A stretch of DNA of 64,000 nucleotides from a virus (lineage: Duplodnaviria; Caudoviricetes), in IMG/VR virus record IMGVR_UViG_3300028283_000231. The stretch is one strand, 5' to 3'. A model generated the notes under the pieces. The model was not told the origin of the DNA. It did no database searches and saw only the letters and a program-made list of their open reading frames with translations. The position numbers were made by a program, and so were the translations under genes. Every line of letters begins with the position of its first letter. Within the stretch, counting starts at the first letter, position 1. Of this stretch, positions 5,216-40,344 are shown piece after piece.

Positions 5216-5492
5216 TTATTATATCTCCTGTTTTACAAATTGTAATTTTATTTTCTATAACACCAATGTTTTGTTTCTTTATGACTTGTATATCATAAGC
5301 GATCAAAACATTTTCCTCAACCGGTTTTTCATCCCATATTTCCTCACCATAGGGATCAGAATCAATTATAATCTATTCTCCTTTGAGTACCATTCTTTTT
5401 TCAAATCTGGGGACAACTCTAAAATCATCAATTTCATATCCAAGATATGATTCCAAATCGTCTTTATCCAACTTTCGATCTTTTTCTGTCAT
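5208..5492 (-). pseudogene. 94-codon ORF with an internal TAG at codon 40; contains the DPYGEEIW motif
   Basis: Manual translation; start and end overlap the neighbouring genes; TAG at 5373-5375. Confidence 0.55.
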
Positions 5493-29558: not shown

Positions 29559-29666
29559 AAACGGGTGGCGGAATGGTAAACGCACCTTTGAATGGAGGAG
29601 GAGGTGATGACAAACTGGTTCGACCAGGAAAATCTCTGAATGTGGGTTCAACTCCCATCCCGTTTA
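29559..29666 (+). ncRNA. Class II tRNA-like RNA with non-canonical anticodon loop and about 40-nt variable region
   Basis: AAACGGG/CCCGTTT; GCGGAATGGTAAACGC D-arm; GTGGG-TTCAACT-CCCAT. Confidence 0.6.
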
Positions 29667-29667
29667 C

Positions 29668-29774
29668 AAATGAGTGGCGGAAACAAAAGACGCACCAGGC
29701 AAGCAAGACTGGCGTGGATATAGAAATGACTTGATAATCTCCACGTGCGGGTGTAAACCCCGTCTCATTCACCA
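29668..29774 (+). ncRNA. Class II tRNA-like RNA with 10-nt anticodon loop, long variable arm and encoded CCA
   Basis: AATGAG/CTCATT; CCAG-GCAAGCAAGA-CTGG; CGTGGA/TCCACG; ends ACCA. Confidence 0.55.
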
Positions 29775-29804
29775 ATTAGTTCTTTGAACGTAAAAATACC
29801 CACC

Positions 29805-29869
29805 GGTAATAAGTTGTAAGATTAAACATTGTCAAACAACAAGGTCTTCCAATCCTTACACTTATTACC
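29805..29869 (+). ncRNA. Long bulged hairpin
   Basis: GGTAATAAG/CTTATTACC plus TGTAAG/CTTACA. Confidence 0.5.
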
Positions 29870-29873
29870 AAAC

Positions 29874-29945
29874 GCTGGTGTAGTATAATGGTCATTACAG
29901 GGCTCTTGTAAAGCTCGAATGGTGGTTCGATTCCACTCACTAGCT
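29874..29945 (+). tRNA. tRNA-Thr(TGT)
   Basis: GGGCT-CT TGT AA-AGCTC. Confidence 0.92.
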
Positions 29946-30015
29946 CTAAAAAATAATTCATCAAAACTCATTTTTGGCTCTAAATAATTTTATATATAAT
30001 AATAAAAATGAAATT

Positions 30016-30741
30016 ATGTGGACACAAGAAAAAATGAATGAAGCTATAAAATTAGCAAAAGAAGGCAAAACTTATGATGAAATAGGTAAAATTCTAAATA
30101 AAACAGGTCATTCTATAAAATGTAAATTTTTAAAAAATAAAATTAAAATAACTGATTTTAAAGAAATTAAAAAATATAAAGTTGTTGATTGTTTAAATTG
30201 TGGTAAAGAAATTTTTGGCGGTGATAGAAAGTTTTGTAATACTAGTTGTGCTGCTATATTTAATAATAAAAAAAGAGACAAAAAGATATTTGAAAAAATA
30301 AGTATATCATTAAAAACACAAAATATTAAAAAAATTTGTTATTGTGTATATTGTGGAGAAAGTTTAAAAGGAAAAAATACCACTTATTGTAATAATACAT
30401 GTTGTGGTAAACATAGAAGAGAAATAAGTATAGGAAAATGGAAGAATGACGAAATTGAAGTGACAACATCAGGTAAAATTAAACCTTTTCTTAGAGATTA
30501 TCTATTTAAAAAATATAATAATAAATGCTCTAAATGTGGTTGGGGTGAAGTGAACGAATTTACCAATAAAATACCACTAGAAGTGGAACACATAGATGGT
30601 AATAGTGAAAACAATAAAGAAGAAAATTTAACACTTTTATGTCCTTGTTGTCATTCATTAACAAAGACATATAAAGGAGCAAATAGAGGAAATGGTAGGC
30701 ACAATAGAATGATTAGATATAGAAATGACAAATCATTTTAA
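30016..30741 (+). CDS. HNH homing endonuclease
   Basis: CSKCGW...LEVEHIDGNSENNKEENLTLLCPCCHS; likely start at ATG 30016. Confidence 0.85.
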   Translation: MWTQEKMNEAIKLAKEGKTYDEIGKILNKTGHSIKCKFLKNKIKITDFKEIKKYKVVDCLNCGKEIFGGDRKFCNTSCAAIFNNKKRDKKIFEKISISLKTQNIKKICYCVYCGESLKGKNTTYCNNTCCGKHRREISIGKWKNDEIEVTTSGKIKPFLRDYLFKKYNNKCSKCGWGEVNEFTNKIPLEVEHIDGNSENNKEENLTLLCPCCHSLTKTYKGANRGNGRHNRMIRYRNDKSF

Positions 30742-30749
30742 AATTATAT

Positions 30750-30821
30750 TCCGATATAATTCAAGGGTAGAATGCCAACTTGGTAAGTTGGATGTTTCGT
30801 GTTCAAGTCACGATATCGGAT
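30750..30821 (+). tRNA. tRNA-Thr(GGT)
   Basis: CCAAC-TT GGT AA-GTTGG. Confidence 0.88.
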
Positions 30822-30886
30822 CACGCGGAGACTGTTAGAATTTCATAGGGCCCCAGAGATAAGAGGAAAACATAGAAATTCATAAT

Positions 30887-30958
30887 GCGATTGTATCTCA
30901 GGGGTAGAGTGGTTGGTTTACATCCAATTTGTCGGTGGTTCGAATCCATCCAGTCGCA
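30887..30958 (+). tRNA. tRNA-Val(TAC)
   Basis: GTTGG-TT TAC AT-CCAAT. Confidence 0.88.
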
Positions 30959-30960
30959 CA

Positions 30961-31071
30961 CCTATTCATAGTTTATCGTGGTTAAAACACAACGACGAAT
31001 ACATCGCCCTTTCTGAATTAAATCAGACGAATGTATTAAGAGTAAGTGAGTTCAAGCCTCACTGAATGGGT
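30961..31071 (+). ncRNA. tRNA-shaped RNA with extended, branched anticodon arm
   Basis: CCTATTC/GAATGGG; GTTT/AAAC D-arm; AATACAT/ATGTATT and TCTGA/TCAGA insert; GTGAG-TTCAAGC-CTCAC. Confidence 0.6.
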
Positions 31072-31077
31072 AAATAT

Positions 31078-31152
31078 GTTTCTGTAGCTCAGTTGGTTGA
31101 GAGCATTACCTTGACAGGGTAGGGGTCGATGGTTCGAATCCATTCAGGAACA
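31078..31152 (+). tRNA. tRNA-Val(GAC)
   Basis: TTACC-TT GAC AG-GGTAG. Confidence 0.92.
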
Positions 31153-31201
31153 CACGCGGTTTTAGCCTTTTAAACGCGACAGGTGGAAAAAGGCATTTAA
31201 C

Positions 31202-31273
31202 GGGGCATTAGTTCAGTGGCGAGAACAGAAGACCTGCAATCTTCAGACAAGGGTTCGACTCCCTTATGCTCCA
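31202..31273 (+). tRNA. tRNA-Ala(TGC), with C33 instead of U33
   Basis: GAAGA-CC TGC AA-TCTTC; G3-U70. Confidence 0.82.
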
Positions 31274-31314
31274 CGAGGATTGAAATATGGGTTCGACCCC
31301 CATCCGCTCCTTCG

Positions 31315-31420
31315 GGGGAGGTAGTTTAATGGTAAAACACATTCCGTATGGGAAGGTAATTTAATGGAGAAGGCCCCGGTGGATGCTGGGGTGGTATGAG
31401 TTCGAACCTCATTCTTTCCA
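31315..31420 (+). ncRNA. Ala-like tRNA-shaped RNA with tandem-duplicated 5' end and irregular anticodon arm
   Basis: GGGGAGGTAGTTTAATGG (31315) and GGGAAGGTAATTTAATGG (31350) both pair with TCTTTCC; CCCCGG-TGGATG-CTGGGG. Confidence 0.5.
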
Positions 31421-31427
31421 CATATAC

Positions 31428-31500
31428 GGGGATGTAGCTCAGTTGGAAGAGCGTTTGCCTGGCAGGCAAAAGGTAGCCGGTTCGAACCCGGCCATCTCCA
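31428..31500 (+). tRNA. tRNA-Ala(GGC)
   Basis: TTTGC-CT GGC AG-GCAAA. Confidence 0.93.
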
Positions 31501-31515
31501 CTAAAATTAATAGAC

Positions 31516-31731
31516 ATGGAAACAAAATGGATTTCAATAGAAGAGGCTTTACCAGAACCACAAATGGGAAAAACTTGGAAAACTTGCGAGCACGTTTTGG
31601 CTTATAGTCCCTCTACAATAGGTATTATAGTAGCAATATATTTTGGTGATAATTTGGATGGACCAACAAAAGGGTGGACAAATATGGGAGTTACTCATTG
31701 GATGCCATTACCAGATAAACCAGTAAAATGA
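31516..31731 (+). CDS. DUF551-like protein
   Basis: WISIEEALP...VTHWMPLPDKP. Confidence 0.8.
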   Translation: METKWISIEEALPEPQMGKTWKTCEHVLAYSPSTIGIIVAIYFGDNLDGPTKGWTNMGVTHWMPLPDKPVK

Positions 31732-31758
31732 AAAAATGAATTTTAAAAAATAGACGTC

Positions 31759-31947
31759 ATGGAAAATTACGGAATAGGTCAGATAATTACAGATTTAGAT
31801 GGCAGTACGTGTACCATCGTTGATATGACGTCAAATTCGATTTGTGTTCATATTAAAAAGAAAAAAGAAGGCGGTATAGATTGTAATAATTGGTTTACTT
31901 TTACTGACTTCGAAAAAAGATTTAAGGCTGCAAACTTAAAATGGTAA
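31759..31947 (+). CDS. Hypothetical protein
   Basis: ORF track. Confidence 0.55.
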   Translation: MENYGIGQIITDLDGSTCTIVDMTSNSICVHIKKKKEGGIDCNNWFTFTDFEKRFKAANLKW

Positions 31948-31951
31948 AAAT

Positions 31952-32042
31952 AGATTACACACAGCAAAAAACCAAATGGTAAAAAAAACAACTGAAAATT
32001 GTTTTGAGACGATTCGATGCGTCACAATAAAAATGTAATCTG
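31952..32042 (+). ncRNA. Stem-ACAGCAA RNA copy 1 (Phe GAA anticodon-like loop plus T-loop-like hairpin)
   Basis: AGATTAC-AC-ACAGCAA...AAACAA-CTGAAAA-TTGTTT...GACG-ATTCGATG-CGTC...GTAATCT-G. Confidence 0.7.
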
Positions 32043-32049
32043 AAAACAA

Positions 32050-32106
32050 AGAATACTTACAGCAAATAAAAAACTTTCTTCCAAAAAGTGAATAAAAAGT
32101 ATTCTG
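32050..32106 (+). ncRNA. Stem-ACAGCAA RNA copy 2 (Gly TCC anticodon-like loop)
   Basis: AGAATAC-TT-ACAGCAA...ACTTT-CTTCCAA-AAAGT...GTATTCT-G. Confidence 0.7.
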
Positions 32107-32112
32107 TAATAC

Positions 32113-32184
32113 GCAGGAGTAGTACAATGGTTAGTACGTCGGCTTGCCAAGCCGAGGATGTGAGTTCGATTCTCATCTCTTGCT
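32113..32184 (+). tRNA. tRNA-Gly(GCC)
   Basis: TCGGC-TT GCC AA-GCCGA. Confidence 0.93.
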
Positions 32185-32202
32185 CTATATATTAAAATAA
32201 AT

Positions 32203-32274
32203 GCGAAAGTAGTATAAAGGCTATTACTCCAGCCTTCCAAGCTGGACATGAGGGTTCGATTCCCTTCTTTCGCT
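32203..32274 (+). tRNA. tRNA-Gly(TCC)
   Basis: CCAGC-CT TCC AA-GCTGG. Confidence 0.93.
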
Positions 32275-32279
32275 CAATT

Positions 32280-32351
32280 GCGAATATAGTTCAGTGATAG
32301 AATATTTGCTTCCCAAGCAAAGGGTAGTGGGTTTGAGTCCCACTATTCGCT
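32280..32351 (+). tRNA. tRNA-Gly(CCC)
   Basis: TTTGC-TT CCC AA-GCAAA. Confidence 0.9.
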
Positions 32352-32353
32352 CA

Positions 32354-32434
32354 GAGATTAACTTACCTTTATTGATGCACACCATTGCGTGATTGGTAGG
32401 AGATGTGGAGTAATTCTCCATCTACGTTAATCTC
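32354..32434 (+). ncRNA. Three-way-junction structured RNA
   Basis: GAGATTAAC/GTTAATCTC closing stem; TACC/GGTA and AGATGTGGAG/CTCCATCT arms. Confidence 0.55.
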
Positions 32435-32443
32435 AAAATTATT

Positions 32444-32542
32444 GCGGAGGTAGTTTAGTGGGAAAATTGCCATGATCAGCCATACTGTTTAAGTGCAGAT
32501 GAATTTGGTGGGTAGTCAAAGGTTCGAATCCTTTTCTTCGCT
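32444..32542 (+). ncRNA. Gly-acceptor tRNA-like RNA with about 30-nt structured insert in the anticodon loop
   Basis: GCGGAGG/TCTTCGC with U73; AAAGG-TTCGAAT-CCTTT; insert CATACTG...CAGATG. Confidence 0.65.
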
Positions 32543-32544
32543 CA

Positions 32545-32650
32545 GGGTGGTTGGTATAATAGGTGAAACCATCAATGTTCTCGCCCTTCCCAGTAGCTTC
32601 GGTGATTAATAGAACTTCGGTTCGCTGACCAAGGATAAAAGAGAACGCCC
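32545..32650 (+). ncRNA. Multi-branch RNA with two cUUCGg tetraloops
   Basis: GGGT/GCCC, GTTCTC/GAGAAC, CCTT/AAGG, CAG/CTG and GAAC-TTCG-GTTC. Confidence 0.6.
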
Positions 32651-32656
32651 AACAAT

Positions 32657-32739
32657 GCGGCTATCGTATAATGGCAACGAGAGTTAGATTATGTCGGTCT
32701 TCCAAACCGAGGATGTGAGTTCGATTCTCACTAGCCGCT
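32657..32739 (+). tRNA. tRNA-Gly(TCC) with enlarged D-loop
   Basis: TCGGT-CT TCC AA-ACCGA; D region AATGGCAACGAGAGTTAGATT. Confidence 0.75.
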
Positions 32740-32743
32740 CAAT

Positions 32744-32811
32744 GAATGCTCACAGCAACCAAAAGCTTTAATAAGCAACAAACTTGTAATTTGTAGAAAA
32801 AAAGCATTCTG
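32744..32811 (+). ncRNA. Stem-ACAGCAA RNA copy 3 (Thr TGT anticodon-like loop)
   Basis: GAATGC-TC-ACAGCAA...ACAAA-CTTGTAA-TTTGT...GCATTCT-G. Confidence 0.7.
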
Positions 32812-32816
32812 TATAT

Positions 32817-32896
32817 GGCCCTGTAATGGCAGAGTCTTCTAAACTCTAAGCGCATAATGGAAACTGAAAATAAGGGTTCGAGTCCCTTCTGGGTCA
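32817..32896 (+). tRNA. Atypical tRNA-Arg(TCT) lacking a D-stem, with 24-nt variable region
   Basis: GGCCCTG-TAATGGC-AGAGT-CT TCT AA-ACTCT...AAGGG-TTCGAGT-CCCTT-CTGGGTC-A. Confidence 0.6.
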
Positions 32897-32942
32897 CAAA
32901 ATAAATAATTAAAATTGATTTTTTTATATTAAAACTTTGTCG

Positions 32943-32950
32943 TATATTTG
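32943..32950 (+). promoter_or_regulatory. Bacteroidota-type -7 promoter box TAnnTTTG (representative copy)
   Basis: Also at 10179, 12537, 21000, 45785, 47880, 51468 and 51775, each in an intergenic gap before a + strand gene; matches the known Bacteroides sigma-A -7 consensus. Confidence 0.7.
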
Positions 32951-32982
32951 CAATAAGAAACTAAAATTTAAAGAAAGGAAAT

Positions 32983-33101
32983 GACGTTAAATCAAGTTGG
33001 ATAATGGAAACCCAGCCTGCCTCACTAGCAAGGAAATGAAAGTCCGAATCTTTCTCCGCCCTACTCAAAAAGGGGCGTGTGGGTAAAAGCCAAATGATGT
33101 C
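32983..33101 (+). ncRNA. Candidate circularly permuted tRNA-Val(CAC) or closed-acceptor tRNA mimic
   Basis: D-loop, anticodon loop CTCACTA, T-arm GAAAG-TCCGAAT-CTTTC and TCCGCCC, followed downstream by the complementary GGGCGTG. Confidence 0.45.
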
Positions 33102-33144
33102 GAAATAGTGTAACGAGATTTGAATATATAATTGATTATCAAAT

Positions 33145-33216
33145 GGTTCCGTAGATCAACGGATAGATCGGGTGACTTCTAATCTCCAGATACAGGTTCG
33201 ATTCCTGTCGGGACTA
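33145..33216 (+). tRNA. tRNA-Arg(TCT)
   Basis: GGTGA-CT TCT AA-TCTCC. Confidence 0.88.
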
Positions 33217-33228
33217 CAAATGGAAAAC

Positions 33229-33299
33229 AGCGGATGTGGTGTAATGGTAACATACTTGCTTTGGGAGCAAGGGTAGCGGTTCAAGTCCGACATCTGCTA
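33229..33299 (+). tRNA. tRNA-Pro(TGG)
   Basis: CTTGC-TT TGG GA-GCAAG. Confidence 0.82.
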
Positions 33300-33366
33300 C
33301 AAGGATTTAAGTTCAAAACAGAAAAAACTGACTTTTATATATTTATATATAAAGTAAAAGATTTGT

Positions 33367-34958: not shown

Positions 34959-35864
34959 ATGATTGGAAGAATAAACTATGGTGGTGTAACATGGGAGCAT
35001 CTTGTTAAACCAACTAGCGCTGAATTTATAGAAATAAAAGACGCTTATAATTTTCACCCTCTCACTATGGAAGACTGTAAAACTAATAGTCTTCATCCAA
35101 AGGTTGATACATATGATGGTTACTATTTTTTAAACTTGCATTTTCCATATTTAGATAAATCTGGAACAGTAGTAGATATTAAAGAGGTAAAAATATTTTG
35201 GGGAAACAATTTTCTTGTAACTATTGGAAAAACACATTGGTTGTTTACACAAGAATTTGAAAAGGAAAAAGCTTTAGCGTCAGATAAAAGAATGGTAGTA
35301 ACAAGTTCTGATATGCTTCTCTACACTCTACTTGATAAAGTTATGAAGGCTACTCAGCAATTAGTTGATAAAGTTGACGAAGAGGTTGATAAATGTGGTA
35401 AATCTATTTTCGGTAAAAGAGCAGAAAAAATAATTGAACATATTAGTATTACTAGGAAGAATGTTATCGTGATGAATACTATGTTCAAACCACAGTTAGC
35501 TATTTTCAGTAAACTCACCAATGGAGCAATTAAAGGTTTTGCTGAAGATATGGAAAACTACTGGGGTAACATTCACGATTATTACCAGAATATATGGGAC
35601 ACAGTTGAAGACGCTGGTGAACTTATAAAGGGTTATAGTACAACATTCGACTCTTTACAGGTAAATAAAACAAACGAAGTGATGAAAATATTAGCTTTAG
35701 TTTCTTCTATTTTATTACCAATATCGTTCTTAGCTAATCTTTACGGTATGAATATTAAAATACCTTTTCAGAACCACGATCAATTTTATATGTATCTTGG
35801 TGGTTTAATGTTAGTTATGATAGTTGGAATGTTTTCGTATTTCAAATTTAAGAAATGGATGTAA
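34959..35864 (+). CDS. corA: CorA-family Mg2+ transporter
   Basis: HPLTMED, PKVD and C-terminal LYGMN followed by two TM helices. Confidence 0.9.
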   Translation: MIGRINYGGVTWEHLVKPTSAEFIEIKDAYNFHPLTMEDCKTNSLHPKVDTYDGYYFLNLHFPYLDKSGTVVDIKEVKIFWGNNFLVTIGKTHWLFTQEFEKEKALASDKRMVVTSSDMLLYTLLDKVMKATQQLVDKVDEEVDKCGKSIFGKRAEKIIEHISITRKNVIVMNTMFKPQLAIFSKLTNGAIKGFAEDMENYWGNIHDYYQNIWDTVEDAGELIKGYSTTFDSLQVNKTNEVMKILALVSSILLPISFLANLYGMNIKIPFQNHDQFYMYLGGLMLVMIVGMFSYFKFKKWM

Positions 35865-36587: not shown

Positions 36588-36672
36588 GCCTGGTTCCGAT
36601 AGCGATCGATTCGACCTGTTTCGTAAACAGGAGTATGATATACCATCGTTGGTTTGAATCCAACACCAGGCT
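36588..36672 (+). tRNA. tRNA-Thr(CGT) with long variable arm
   Basis: GCCTGGT/ACCAGGC; CCTGT-TT CGT AA-ACAGG; extra GTAT-GAT-ATAC arm. Confidence 0.75.
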
Positions 36673-36704
36673 CGAGAGTACATTAAAAAATAATAATAGA
36701 ATTA

Positions 36705-36923
36705 ATGAAATATTGTAAAGTTTGCGGTGAAGAGATTCCAGAAGGAAGAGTTAAGGCGTTACCAAACGCTGAGACCTGTGTGGAACATTCAGGAGCAAAA
36801 AAGAAGAAAGGATTTGTTGTAATTAGTAGTAAAACTACATACAGCGAATTAGATATAGTGGATGATAACACTTATAAAATGTTAAAGAAATTAGATAGAG
36901 ACGGTTGGCACGCTTGTAATTAA
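36705..36923 (+). CDS. TraR/DksA C4-type zinc-finger protein
   Basis: CKVCGEEIPEGRVKALPNAETCVEH. Confidence 0.82.
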   Translation: MKYCKVCGEEIPEGRVKALPNAETCVEHSGAKKKKGFVVISSKTTYSELDIVDDNTYKMLKKLDRDGWHACN

Positions 36924-36944
36924 TAAAAAATAAAAACAAATAAA

Positions 36945-37628
36945 ATGAAAAAGATTCAAATCGAAATCATGGCTTCCGAGGGAGGTAATGATTCAAAACT
37001 ATTAGTGGTAGATCTTATGGATATTTATATCAGATCAGCAAAAAACCAAAACTTCAATTGAAGAGTAGTTGAAGTCAAAGATGGTTTTGCTTCGATATGA
37101 ATAGAAGGTGATAGCGTAAACAAATTTTACGCAAACGAAAGTGGAGCACATTGCTTTTCGAGGATACCACCAACAGAAAGAAATGGTAGAACTCAAACAA
37201 GTATAGTTAAAGTGGCGATAATGAACCCAGAAAAAGAAGCGGGATACGTTTTGAATAGAAATGATGTAACAAAAAATTATATCAGATCTTCAAAAAAAGC
37301 GGGTGGCCAAAATTTAAACAAAGTTTCTTCTTGTGTTCAATTAATACATATTCCAACTGGTATTCAGGTTAAAGTTCAGGACACAAGAGATCAAACCAAA
37401 AATGAAATTATCGCGTGGGAAAGATTGACTCAAAAATTAAAAGTCATCGAAGACAAGAACGATCGTGAAAAAATTGATAACAAACGCAAGGATCAAATTG
37501 GAGAACATGGTAGAGGAAATAAAAGAAGAACATACAGATTGAAAGAAGATATCGTGCAAGATCATATCACTGGCAAATCATGTAGATGGAAGGATATATT
37601 GAAAGGTAAAATAGAGTTACTTTTCTAA
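36945..37628 (+). CDS. prfA: RF1-type peptide chain release factor (lacking domain 1) with two in-frame TGA codons
   Basis: IEIMASEGG, NESGAH, RIPPTERNGRTQTS (PxT) and GGQNLNK all lie in one frame; TGA at 37059-37061 and 37098-37100. Confidence 0.85.
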
Positions 37629-37784
37629 TTTTTCTTTGAATTTTTCACTTATTTTTATATATTTTTCGTTGTTTAAAGTCAGATTTTTTAATCTTAGTAT
37701 TTTTTATTTGAAGAAAAAATTCTTAACTTTGAATATAATCTTCAATTAGGTCATACAAGTTTTTATATATAAAGTAAAAACTTT

Positions 37785-38423
37785 ATGAATTTCACAATAT
37801 ATGGATTGAAGGAGAAGGGCAATGATGAAATCAAATATATTGGTTTAACAACATCTAAATTAAGCATTAGATTCAGTAAACATTTAAGTGATAAAAAGGT
37901 TGATCATAAAACCAATTGGATAAAAAAAATTGGCAAGGATAATGTTGAAATTGTTGTTATAGAAGATGAAATATCAGATATAGATACATTACATGAAAAA
38001 GAGATATTTTATATTAATAAATATAAAAAGGAAGGCCATAATTTAACTAATATAACTAATGGTGGAGAAGGCTGGTATAATATGGTTTTCTCAGATGAAC
38101 ACAAAAAAAATATTAGTTTAAATCATGCTGATGTAAGTGGAGAAAATAATCCCATGTTTGGTAAAGAACACACTATTAATGTGAAAAATAAAATAAGGGA
38201 TTTTAGATTGAATTATAAAATTTCAGATGAAACAAAAGAAAAAATGAAGTGTAGTAAATTAGGTGAAAAAAATACTAATGTTAAATTAACATCCGATGAT
38301 GTATTGAAAATAAGACAATACGTTAATGAATACACACAAAAGGAATTAGCATCTATGTTTAATGTTAAACCTGGGGCAATTAGTAAGATAATAAATCACA
38401 CTACTTGGAAACATTTAAAATGA
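37785..38423 (+). CDS. GIY-YIG homing endonuclease with NUMOD3 repeats
   Basis: IYGL...KYIGLT, LTNITNGGEG and GENNPMFGKEHT. Confidence 0.85.
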   Translation: MNFTIYGLKEKGNDEIKYIGLTTSKLSIRFSKHLSDKKVDHKTNWIKKIGKDNVEIVVIEDEISDIDTLHEKEIFYINKYKKEGHNLTNITNGGEGWYNMVFSDEHKKNISLNHADVSGENNPMFGKEHTINVKNKIRDFRLNYKISDETKEKMKCSKLGEKNTNVKLTSDDVLKIRQYVNEYTQKELASMFNVKPGAISKIINHTTWKHLK

Positions 38424-38962
38424 ATTATATGAGTTATTTTGATAATTTCGTTTTGGCGCCTTATATTTTAAAAGCGACAGCTCTTATAGGGGTTCATCGT
38501 AAATGTGGCGGAAATCAATTTCGTCATCAATTCGCAACACTTGGAATCTTATTAGACTATAAATATTTCAATGATTCGGTTCTTTTAAAAGCCGCGTTGT
38601 TGCATGATATTATAGAGGACGTTGTCGATTCAGAAATGGATGCTATTCGTTCTTTAGATGGTGACGGACAAGCAGTTATAAACTTAGTACAAGAAGTATC
38701 TAAAAGTAAGGAGGAGACTAAGGCTGATTATCTTAAAAGAATTTTGGAAACTGGTTCGGATAGGGCTAAGATTTTGAAATGTGCAGATAGAATCAGTAAT
38801 CTTACTGATATGCACTTAGATACACATACATCAGGTAAGATAGCACAATATCTTGATCAGACTGAGCGGTATATTATTCCAATGGCTCTTTCTATTTCTA
38901 ATCTTGATTTTGTAAGGGAATTAGCAGATTTAATTATTCAGAGAAGATTATTAATTGCGTGA
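38420..38962 (+). CDS. HD-domain hydrolase (SpoT/Mesh1-like)
   Basis: AALLHDIIED and LKCADRISNL. Confidence 0.8.
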   Translation: MNYMSYFDNFVLAPYILKATALIGVHRKCGGNQFRHQFATLGILLDYKYFNDSVLLKAALLHDIIEDVVDSEMDAIRSLDGDGQAVINLVQEVSKSKEETKADYLKRILETGSDRAKILKCADRISNLTDMHLDTHTSGKIAQYLDQTERYIIPMALSISNLDFVRELADLIIQRRLLIA

Positions 38963-39230: not shown

Positions 39231-39562
39231 ACACAACTCTTTATAGACCAGTAAATAAAGCAGAATTGGATCTTATCATAGCAAGCGATTGGACCCAATT
39301 TCCACCACGTTTACCCGAGCAACCAATATTCTATCCAGTTCTTAGTTTAAGTTACGCTAAGAAAATAAACGAATGGAACGTAAACGCTTACGGTGAAGGG
39401 TTTATAGTGGAATTTCAAATTGATAATATGTATTTAGTTATACATAATATTGATGTTCATAATGTTGGAGATAAAGACGATAATGAATTTTGGATAAGAG
39501 CAGATCAATTAGATTCTTTCAATAAAAATATAGTAGGAAAAATAAAATTATGTATTACATAG
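39227..39562 (+). CDS. ADP-ribosylation/crystallin J1-like small protein
   Basis: LYRPV...EL...FPPRLPEQPIFYPVL...YA. Confidence 0.7.
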   Translation: MNTTLYRPVNKAELDLIIASDWTQFPPRLPEQPIFYPVLSLSYAKKINEWNVNAYGEGFIVEFQIDNMYLVIHNIDVHNVGDKDDNEFWIRADQLDSFNKNIVGKIKLCIT

Positions 39563-40344
39563 TACAAGAAAGATTATACAGAGAAGACGAGTGGGACGAT
39601 CTTATTCACGCACTGGAAAGATTCAATCTTAATTACGAGATTGTTAAACTTATTCCATTCGTTGACGATTTTGAATTTGAGACAAAAGAAAAAAATGTCT
39701 TTTGTTTTGGTGCGCTTAAGATGGCAAGACTTGCTCCAAAGTACGGTTGGTATCCTGGAATTCTTATGACGCCTAATCACGATTTTAATGTTTATAAAGA
39801 ATATTACAAAGAAAACTTATTGAATTATGACTCAAAAATATACAGAATATCCGAAGATTTTGAATGGAACGGTGATTTCTTTGTTAGGCCTGTATTGGAC
39901 ACTAAGATTTTTAATGGAAGACCTTATGCCATGCAAGACTGGAAAAAAGAAAGCAATCGTCTCTTGTGTAACTCCAAAAGTGATAAGGATAATGGAATAA
40001 CCAACATAGTTAGCGAAGACACTCTTATACAAGTTAGTAGTCTTAAAAATATTCAAAAAGAATTTAGATTCTATATCGTTGATGGTAAGATAGCTACAGC
40101 GAGCCTTTATAAAGAAGGATATTTTGTGAGGTATAGTGATATAGTTGATCAAGGGGCTATAGATTATTGTAACGAGATGATAAAAGTGTTTCAGTTGGCT
40201 GACGCTTTTGTAATGGATATTTGTTTGACTGACGATGAGTGGAAGATAATTGAGTGTGGTTGCCTTTCGTGCGCTGGTCTCTACAAAGCTAACATACCTA
40301 AACTTCTAATGGCATTAGAAGATAAATTTAACATTGAGATATAA
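39550..40344 (+). CDS. ATP-grasp domain protein (DUF4343/R2K-like)
   Basis: FVRP...K.F.G, EFRFYIVDGKI, AFVMDI and IIECGC. Confidence 0.75.
   Translation: MYYIVQERLYREDEWDDLIHALERFNLNYEIVKLIPFVDDFEFETKEKNVFCFGALKMARLAPKYGWYPGILMTPNHDFNVYKEYYKENLLNYDSKIYRISEDFEWNGDFFVRPVLDTKIFNGRPYAMQDWKKESNRLLCNSKSDKDNGITNIVSEDTLIQVSSLKNIQKEFRFYIVDGKIATASLYKEGYFVRYSDIVDQGAIDYCNEMIKVFQLADAFVMDICLTDDEWKIIECGCLSCAGLYKANIPKLLMALEDKFNIEI

Follow-up and report, generated by a model that had tools for sequence, protein, structure and literature searches.

The window, that is, the whole stretch of 64,000 nucleotides analysed here, has a G+C content of 31% and carries at least 15 tRNA genes. A gene for a class-I release factor of the RF1 type is located at 36945-37628 on the plus strand. 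The frame starts with ATG at 36945, ends with TAA at 37626-37628 and comprises 227 codons that stay in phase throughout, with TGA at codons 39 and 52 (gates 1 and 2 below). Re-derivation of this RF1-like frame, of its PPT and GGQ motifs and of both TGA codons confirmed the initial annotation. To judge from the predicted proteins, the neighbouring genes look like a cluster for translation and stress physiology. The features of the locus are as follows.

34959-35864: CorA Mg2+ transporter
36705-36923: DksA/TraR zinc-finger protein, upstream of the release factor gene
36945-37628, plus strand: RF1-type class-I release factor gene, 227 residues, domains 2, 3 and 4 only (Pfam, NCBIfam, AlphaFold)
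36945-37097, plus strand: pre-gate coding segment, codons 1-51, with pN far below pS
37059-37061, plus strand: gate 1, in-frame TGA at codon 39, context AAT TGA AGA (next base A), aligned with a conserved Trp/Phe of bacterial RF1
37098-37100, plus strand: gate 2, in-frame TGA at codon 52, context ATA TGA ATA (next base A), in a beta-strand of domain 2
37167-37175, plus strand: PPT, the RF1-type PxT "anticodon" motif, codons 75-77, aligned with PVT of T. thermophilus and S. mutans RF1
37302-37310, plus strand: GGQ peptidyl-tRNA hydrolysis motif, codons 120-122, invariant in the family alignment
38405-38962: HD_4 (RelA/SpoT-type hydrolase) domain protein
39550-40344: R2K ATP-grasp protein

The 227-residue product matched the Pfam domains RF-1 (84.1 bits) and PCRF (60.7 bits, C-terminal half). 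Among the NCBIfam models it scored highest with prfA (165.7 bits over model positions 104-333 of 347; cut-off, 400), followed by prfB (118), PrfH (68) and ArfB (33), all of these scores being below the equivalog cut-offs. Only 21 bases separate the end of the upstream DksA/TraR gene from the ATG of the release factor gene, so that domain 1 (about 105 residues in RF1) is truly missing. An AlphaFold model obtained with 36 homologs as input had a pLDDT of 87.7 and matched domains 2-4 of ribosome-bound RF1 with a TM score of 0.91 (about 2 Å), as against 0.67 for PrfH. With this confident RF1-like fold and with PPT and GGQ intact, the modelled product looks functional. Under the tripeptide rule ascribed to Ito et al. 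2000, P-x-T reportedly limits the second base of the stop codon to A; the PPT motif therefore predicts a factor that reads UAA and UAG, without UGA. At the positions aligned with the third-base readers of RF1, the product has Ser72 for Gln181 and Gln84 for His193. Throughout the clade of the window gene the Gln181 equivalent is S, V, L, I or M and the His193 equivalent is Q; distant relatives retain Gln. Since both equivalents are replaced, the third-base pocket of this clade differs from that of canonical RF1. A missing Gln181 equivalent may point to a factor for UAA only, the alternative being one of broad specificity.

Gate 1 is aligned with the Trp of the segment "NQGWKFEV" in Streptococcus mutans RF1 and with a Phe in T. 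thermophilus RF1, which places it, as first proposed, in the W-R/K-V-E region of bacterial RF1. Residue 52 lies in the beta-strand following that of residue 39 and is L, C, T, I or F in ungated relatives. The idea that both TGA codons occupy Trp positions thus holds for codon 39, a conserved Trp, and fails for codon 52, a hydrophobic strand position. The remaining Trp codons of the gene (158 and 215) are TGG, as had been described. Both TGA codons were identical, with zero differences, in contigs from two DNA and two metatranscriptome runs of other samples, indicating that they are real and not assembly errors. A contig from the metatranscriptome library of another sample spans 36735-37669 without any difference; it may reflect DNA carry-over. 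The stretch is present in lake-water metagenomes. Its nearest record, LR756501, is a 735-kb phage of Al-Shayeb et al., who give Bacteroidetes as the predicted hosts of their largest phages (PMC7162821). The homolog in LR756501 likewise has TGA at codons 39 and 52. Codon 39 is also TGA in relatives L001, L018, L065 and L138, and distant relatives have either TGA or a CTT-stop frameshift site at the equivalent of gate 1. A small hairpin (CTTCAA ... TTGAAG, 37051-37075) has gate 1 in its loop and is possible with other letters in L018 (TTCAAC ... GTTGAA) and L065 (TCGAT ... ATCGA). On comparison of four distinct sequences, this hairpin may simply follow from the residues encoded there.

About 240 relatives of the release factor were obtained by a protein database search. 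A single-protein query of IMG/VR returned no close relatives, and an alignment-based scan was needed to find them. A scan of genome contigs yielded a few MAG contigs, which are probably mis-binned phage DNA, plus one ordinary RF2. The gate was classified at 92 loci, comprising the DNA of 91 relatives and the window. A gate was present in the same N-terminal stretch at 85 of them: 53 loci have in-frame TGA (one codon in 43, two in 10), two have in-frame TAG, and 30 carry a prfB-type +1 frameshift cassette (GGAGG-N3-CTT-stop); the other seven have no gate. A CTT-TGA, CTT-TAG or CTT-TAA junction was seen in all 27 frameshift-type genes inspected in detail, most of which also have GGAGG three bases 5′ of the CTT site. 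Among the 59 in-frame genes, 58 TGA and no TGG were counted at the gate columns, as against 114 TGG and no TGA in the rest of the same genes; the gate 2 column alone contains 27 TGA, one TAG and no TGG. Conservation of TGA among homologs, which the initial annotation had put forward as a check, is thus borne out, and TGA is retained at identical columns down to 44% identity. In a tree of the post-gate part of the protein, the gate type changed at least 10 times among read-through, frameshift and ungated forms. Read-through and frameshift forms occur as sisters, for example in L018 and L140 (support 100/90), and sister genes can differ in having TGA or TAG (L116 and L136; L134 versus L109/L135). 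The same PPT/Q decoding motifs are found in relatives gated by TGA, TAG or TAA.

The context of the gates was also biased. Immediately 3′ of the gate TGA, A is found in 27 cases, C in 19, G in four and T in none. Where a Leu codon follows, it is CTN in 19 of 19 cases, compared with TTR frequencies elsewhere of 46% (62% in AT-rich members); this preference has a P of about 1e-5 when relatedness is ignored. A U at position +4 is reported to lower read-through in bacteria (PMC5289835). Since +4 is never T and Leu is encoded as CTN, the gate context appears to have been selected for leakiness. A conserved RNA structure 3′ of gate 2 was not detected by RNAalifold among 21 relatives, which gave no pairs, and single-sequence z-scores were mixed; a 7-bp hairpin at 37114-37132 of the window is therefore no feature of the family. 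With no such conserved structure downstream, the efficiency of read-through may be low, and that through two gates very low unless UGA termination is impaired. At the level of sequence, the gates are demonstrably real, conserved, set in a leaky context and evolutionarily interchangeable with the prfB-type +1 frameshift cassette.

Public gene calls bear the mark of the gates. On long contigs (up to 736 kb) the gene is divided into a peptide of approximately 50 residues with a weak PCRF match and an "RF-1" protein of 134-171 residues. Full-length calls are confined to short contigs, where the caller apparently chose code 4. Truncation on long contigs combined with full length on short ones is the signature of internal stops.

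The genetic code was examined in the window and in LR756501. Stop-to-stop frames of at least 150 codons in the window end with TAA in 28 cases, TGA in 18 and TAG in seven, and TGA is absent inside most long ORFs. That TGA is a normal stop elsewhere in the window, as had been stated, is evident from the long ORFs that it ends at 5489, 8160, 14463 and 26326. The fraction of LR756501 covered by ORFs of at least 150 codons was 0.785 under code 11, 0.807 under code 4 and 0.797 under code 15, and no region of the whole genome was found to gain under an alternative code. Its 601 long frames end with TAA (450), TGA (117) or TAG (34), and it has a single RF-1-domain gene and 59-62 tRNAs. A search for a suppressor tRNA with anticodon TCA, as proposed in the initial annotation, gave none: ARAGORN, with introns allowed, detected no tRNA(UCA) in the tRNA array of the window or in LR756501, and a scan of the whole window for UCA anticodon hairpins yielded no convincing candidate, the scope of this negative being bounded by three intron-bearing tRNA-like genes of the window without a readable anticodon. 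Considering that code 11 explains both the window and LR756501, that TGA ends many genes and that tRNA(UCA) was not found, we conclude that the code is unchanged in the window and in this sister genome. A codon-usage scan for further stop-gated genes had too much noise to be usable, since antisense and off-frame stretches of this AT-rich DNA also score as coding. Comparison of code-4 ORFs with LR756501 by tblastn left two unclear, uncovered segments, 52440-52706 and 27683-28009. The latter (327 bases, just 5′ of the tRNA array) is not covered by long code-11 ORFs, and its translation is 100% identical to LR756501, compared with about 87-97% for the flanking genes; it may be a conserved non-coding element.

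The tRNA genes themselves showed several peculiarities. Rfam gave 20 tRNA matches in the window (28042-33300 and 36588-36673), six of which were absent from the default ARAGORN run; two of these six were recovered as intron-bearing once introns were allowed. Insertions of approximately 35-50 bases are present in the anticodon arm of the tRNAs at 29559-29666, 31315-31420 and 32444-32542. The tRNA at 32657-32739 (anticodon UCC) has a 14-base insertion in the D-loop, and that at 32817-32896 (anticodon UCU) has a long extra arm and no D-arm. LR756501, a standard-code genome, encodes two well-formed tRNAs with a CUA anticodon, i.e., amber suppressors, and these share the genome with an RF1-type factor expected to compete with them. 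There may also be a tRNA(UUA) with a 16-base intron, adjoining a tRNA-Trp gene. The regions that hold these CUA and UUA tRNAs are 690585-690738 and 204243-204333 (loci L054 and L030). One of the two tRNA-Trp(CCA) genes of LR756501 (204163-204235, L030) has a U11-A24 pair in the D-stem, the pair that reportedly arises in E. coli tRNA-Trp through the Hirsh UGA-suppressor mutation. This tRNA is a possible helper of UGA read-through.

In relation to LR756501, the release factor gene is a chimera (window 36945-37628 versus L001:3757-4437). Synonymous differences amount to 6.6% in codons 1-51 and 32% in codons 53-95; in codons 96-227 synonymous sites are saturated and non-synonymous differences reach 29%. 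The flanking DksA-like and HD proteins are 96% and 89% identical, respectively. A GIY-YIG/NUMOD3 homing endonuclease gene (37785-38423), which has a counterpart nowhere in LR756501, lies directly 3′ of the release factor gene. This arrangement suggests that the 3′ part of the release factor gene was replaced in a process linked to the endonuclease.

As a whole, these observations led us to propose, with a probability of roughly 0.7, that the window carries a functional phage gene for a short factor of the RF1 type, which would be made at full length only by read-through of two programmed in-frame UGA codons. Termination at the first or the second UGA would yield a fragment of 38 or 51 residues. 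The residue inserted at UGA would most likely be Trp, delivered by ordinary tRNA-Trp(CCA) through near-cognate pairing. The output of full-length factor would be the product of the two read-through efficiencies and would rise as UGA termination slows, so that the gate would couple synthesis of the phage factor to the UGA termination capacity of the infected cell.

The proposal of a gated working gene has to be weighed against the view that the gene is a pseudogene, or that only a GGQ-domain product is made from an internal start at 37212 or 37221. Gene callers do give products of 134-136 residues on long contigs, beginning at a conserved Met; bacterial RF1 has the same conserved Met, which marks it as a structural residue and gives no evidence for a start. 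For codons 1-51, dN/dS was 0.05-0.18 in many pairs of relatives, matching the values downstream of the gate. With pN far below pS upstream of the gate, the pre-gate segment must be translated in frame, which excludes a pseudogene and a product from 37212 only. TGA stands at the same columns down to 44% identity, never replaced by TGG, and other stops or frameshifts were not seen in the gene. The initial annotation had named relaxed selection and a start only downstream, at about 37212, as the outcomes that would overturn it; the stretch upstream of 37212 is under purifying selection, and we regard this explanation as scarcely credible. It is also very improbable that the code changes locally or in late genes, with a suppressor tRNA of the phage reading TGA as Trp, as Borges et al. 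describe for recoded phages. TGA-recoded phages with an RF1 gene exist, yet in these the RF1 gene is itself in the standard code (bioRxiv 10.1101/2021.08.26.457843). The three tRNA-like genes with unread anticodons leave some room for a code change, and the code evidence covers the window and its sister genome. Against it, TGA terminates many genes of both, LR756501 has neither a region that gains under code 4 nor a tRNA(UCA), and a suppressor tRNA would leave unexplained why relatives have a frameshift site in place of the TGA. Two further ways past the gates were considered and rejected. Selenocysteine is at odds with the Trp or hydrophobic residues of homologs and with the frameshift sites that replace the gate in relatives. 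At gate 2, hopping three bases, from one ATA across TGA to the next, provides no general mechanism, as the flanking codons vary among relatives.

If the gates are programmed, there remains the matter of what they respond to. Because PPT predicts a reader of UAA and UAG but not of UGA, host RF2 is the sensed factor that we favour, albeit tentatively and at slightly less than even odds. The initial annotation held that phage RF1 is made only when UGA termination is weak: a real RF1-type gene that needs read-through and has conserved gates is supported, and a specificity for RF2 depletion would be no more than a possibility, as TGA, TAG and TAA gates occur with the same decoding motifs. Such mixed gates fit poorly with an RF2-specific sensor; a simpler account would have the gene's own product recognise the gate codon, or the gate respond to termination capacity in general. 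The phage factor as its own sensed factor ranks second to host RF2, as a less likely possibility. A factor of broadened or omnipotent specificity would then read the gate codon, giving prfB-like negative feedback on a potentially toxic protein. A reader of any stop would account for gates of all three kinds with the same PPT/Q motifs and for the TGA/TAG switches between sisters; the decoding pocket of the window clade is non-canonical, having lost both the Gln181 and the His193 equivalents, and unregulated overexpression of RF2 is toxic (PMC12421855). Self-reading is opposed by the nearly exclusive use of UGA at in-frame gates (58, as against two TAG and no TAA), which leakiness alone predicts. 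It is opposed also by the tripeptide rule, under which a P-x-T product should leave UGA unread. More doubtful is a takeover of termination by the phage, in which a fall in host RF2 function, spontaneous or induced, would open the UGA gates and a factor of altered stop specificity would reprogram working stop codons late in infection, the phage's own code being unchanged; the factor would act together with amber, and possibly ochre, suppressor tRNAs of the phage, of the kind noted in the sister genome. We consider it improbable that the gates are a fixed attenuator that senses nothing and holds expression very low and constant. No conserved stimulatory RNA structure was found with RNAalifold in 21 relatives, the number of gates varies from 0 to 2, and seven of the 92 loci are ungated, all of which would suit an attenuator. 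However, a weak start site would serve as well, yet the stop-codon device persists through at least 10 switches of gate type, and its frameshift version in relatives is a known cassette for sensing release factors.

By comparison of sequences, the window gene is a member of a large family of RF1-type genes in phages, in which the prfB principle takes three interchangeable forms, namely UGA read-through, UGA frameshift and UAG frameshift. If this is true, the known programmed recoding of bacteria and phages widens, and the family offers natural, compact read-through and frameshift cassettes for studying the sensing of RF1 and RF2 levels. It would also mean that huge phages control how translation terminates in the infected cell, and perhaps alter its specificity, and that gene callers, which systematically truncate these genes to 134-171 residues, need correction.

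Gating of the RF2 gene by a stop codon is textbook knowledge. The window gene shares with prfB an early in-frame stop in a class-I release factor gene, whose full-length synthesis competes with termination, and 30 of the 92 loci share with it the CTT-stop +1 frameshift site as well. The ribosome slips by +1 in prfB (SD-like element, CUU UGA C), whereas the frame is kept in the window gene and read-through is required; no CUU-UGA-C shift site with an SD-like element is present there, the gates reading AAT TGA AGA and ATA TGA ATA. The gate of prfB is in domain 1, while the two gates of the window gene are in domain 2. The product of prfB is RF2, whereas that of the window gene is of the RF1 type (PPT) and, by the tripeptide rule, should not read its own UGA gate. 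A 2025 survey in mBio showed programmed frameshifting for prfB and not for prfA, with no TAG in the prfB motif (PMC12421855). Phage-borne release factor genes are found among the translation genes of huge phages. RF1 and RF2 are listed among these by Al-Shayeb et al. 2020, and the searched passages of that paper make no mention of an internal stop or frameshift in them (PMC7162821). The Jade phages of Borges et al. have a standard-code RF1 gene, which there serves a genome-wide switch of TGA to Trp (bioRxiv 10.1101/2021.08.26.457843). PrfH (RF-H) and ArfB resemble the window factor in lacking domain 1 and in size (about 140-230 residues). The window factor scored 67.7 bits with PrfH (TIGR03072; cut-off, 166.65) and 33.1 bits with ArfB (cut-off, 100), its fold differs from that of PrfH (TM 0.67), and unlike both it keeps the codon-reading PxT. 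PrfH has RtcB as its partner; no Pfam match to a ligase family was obtained among the ten flanking ORFs scanned. A literature search found no publication describing this gated phage RF1-type family. Mimivirus and Megavirus likewise encode a release factor that passes two internal stops by recoding, which Jeudy et al. 2012 interpret as autoregulation; that factor is of the eRF1 type, belongs to a eukaryotic virus and requires one frameshift and one read-through (PMC3521657). The window gene encodes a bacterial RF1-type factor in a phage and would require two read-throughs, and the two factors are not homologous. The closest known systems are thus the frameshifting of prfB and the combined frameshift and read-through of Mimivirus eRF1.
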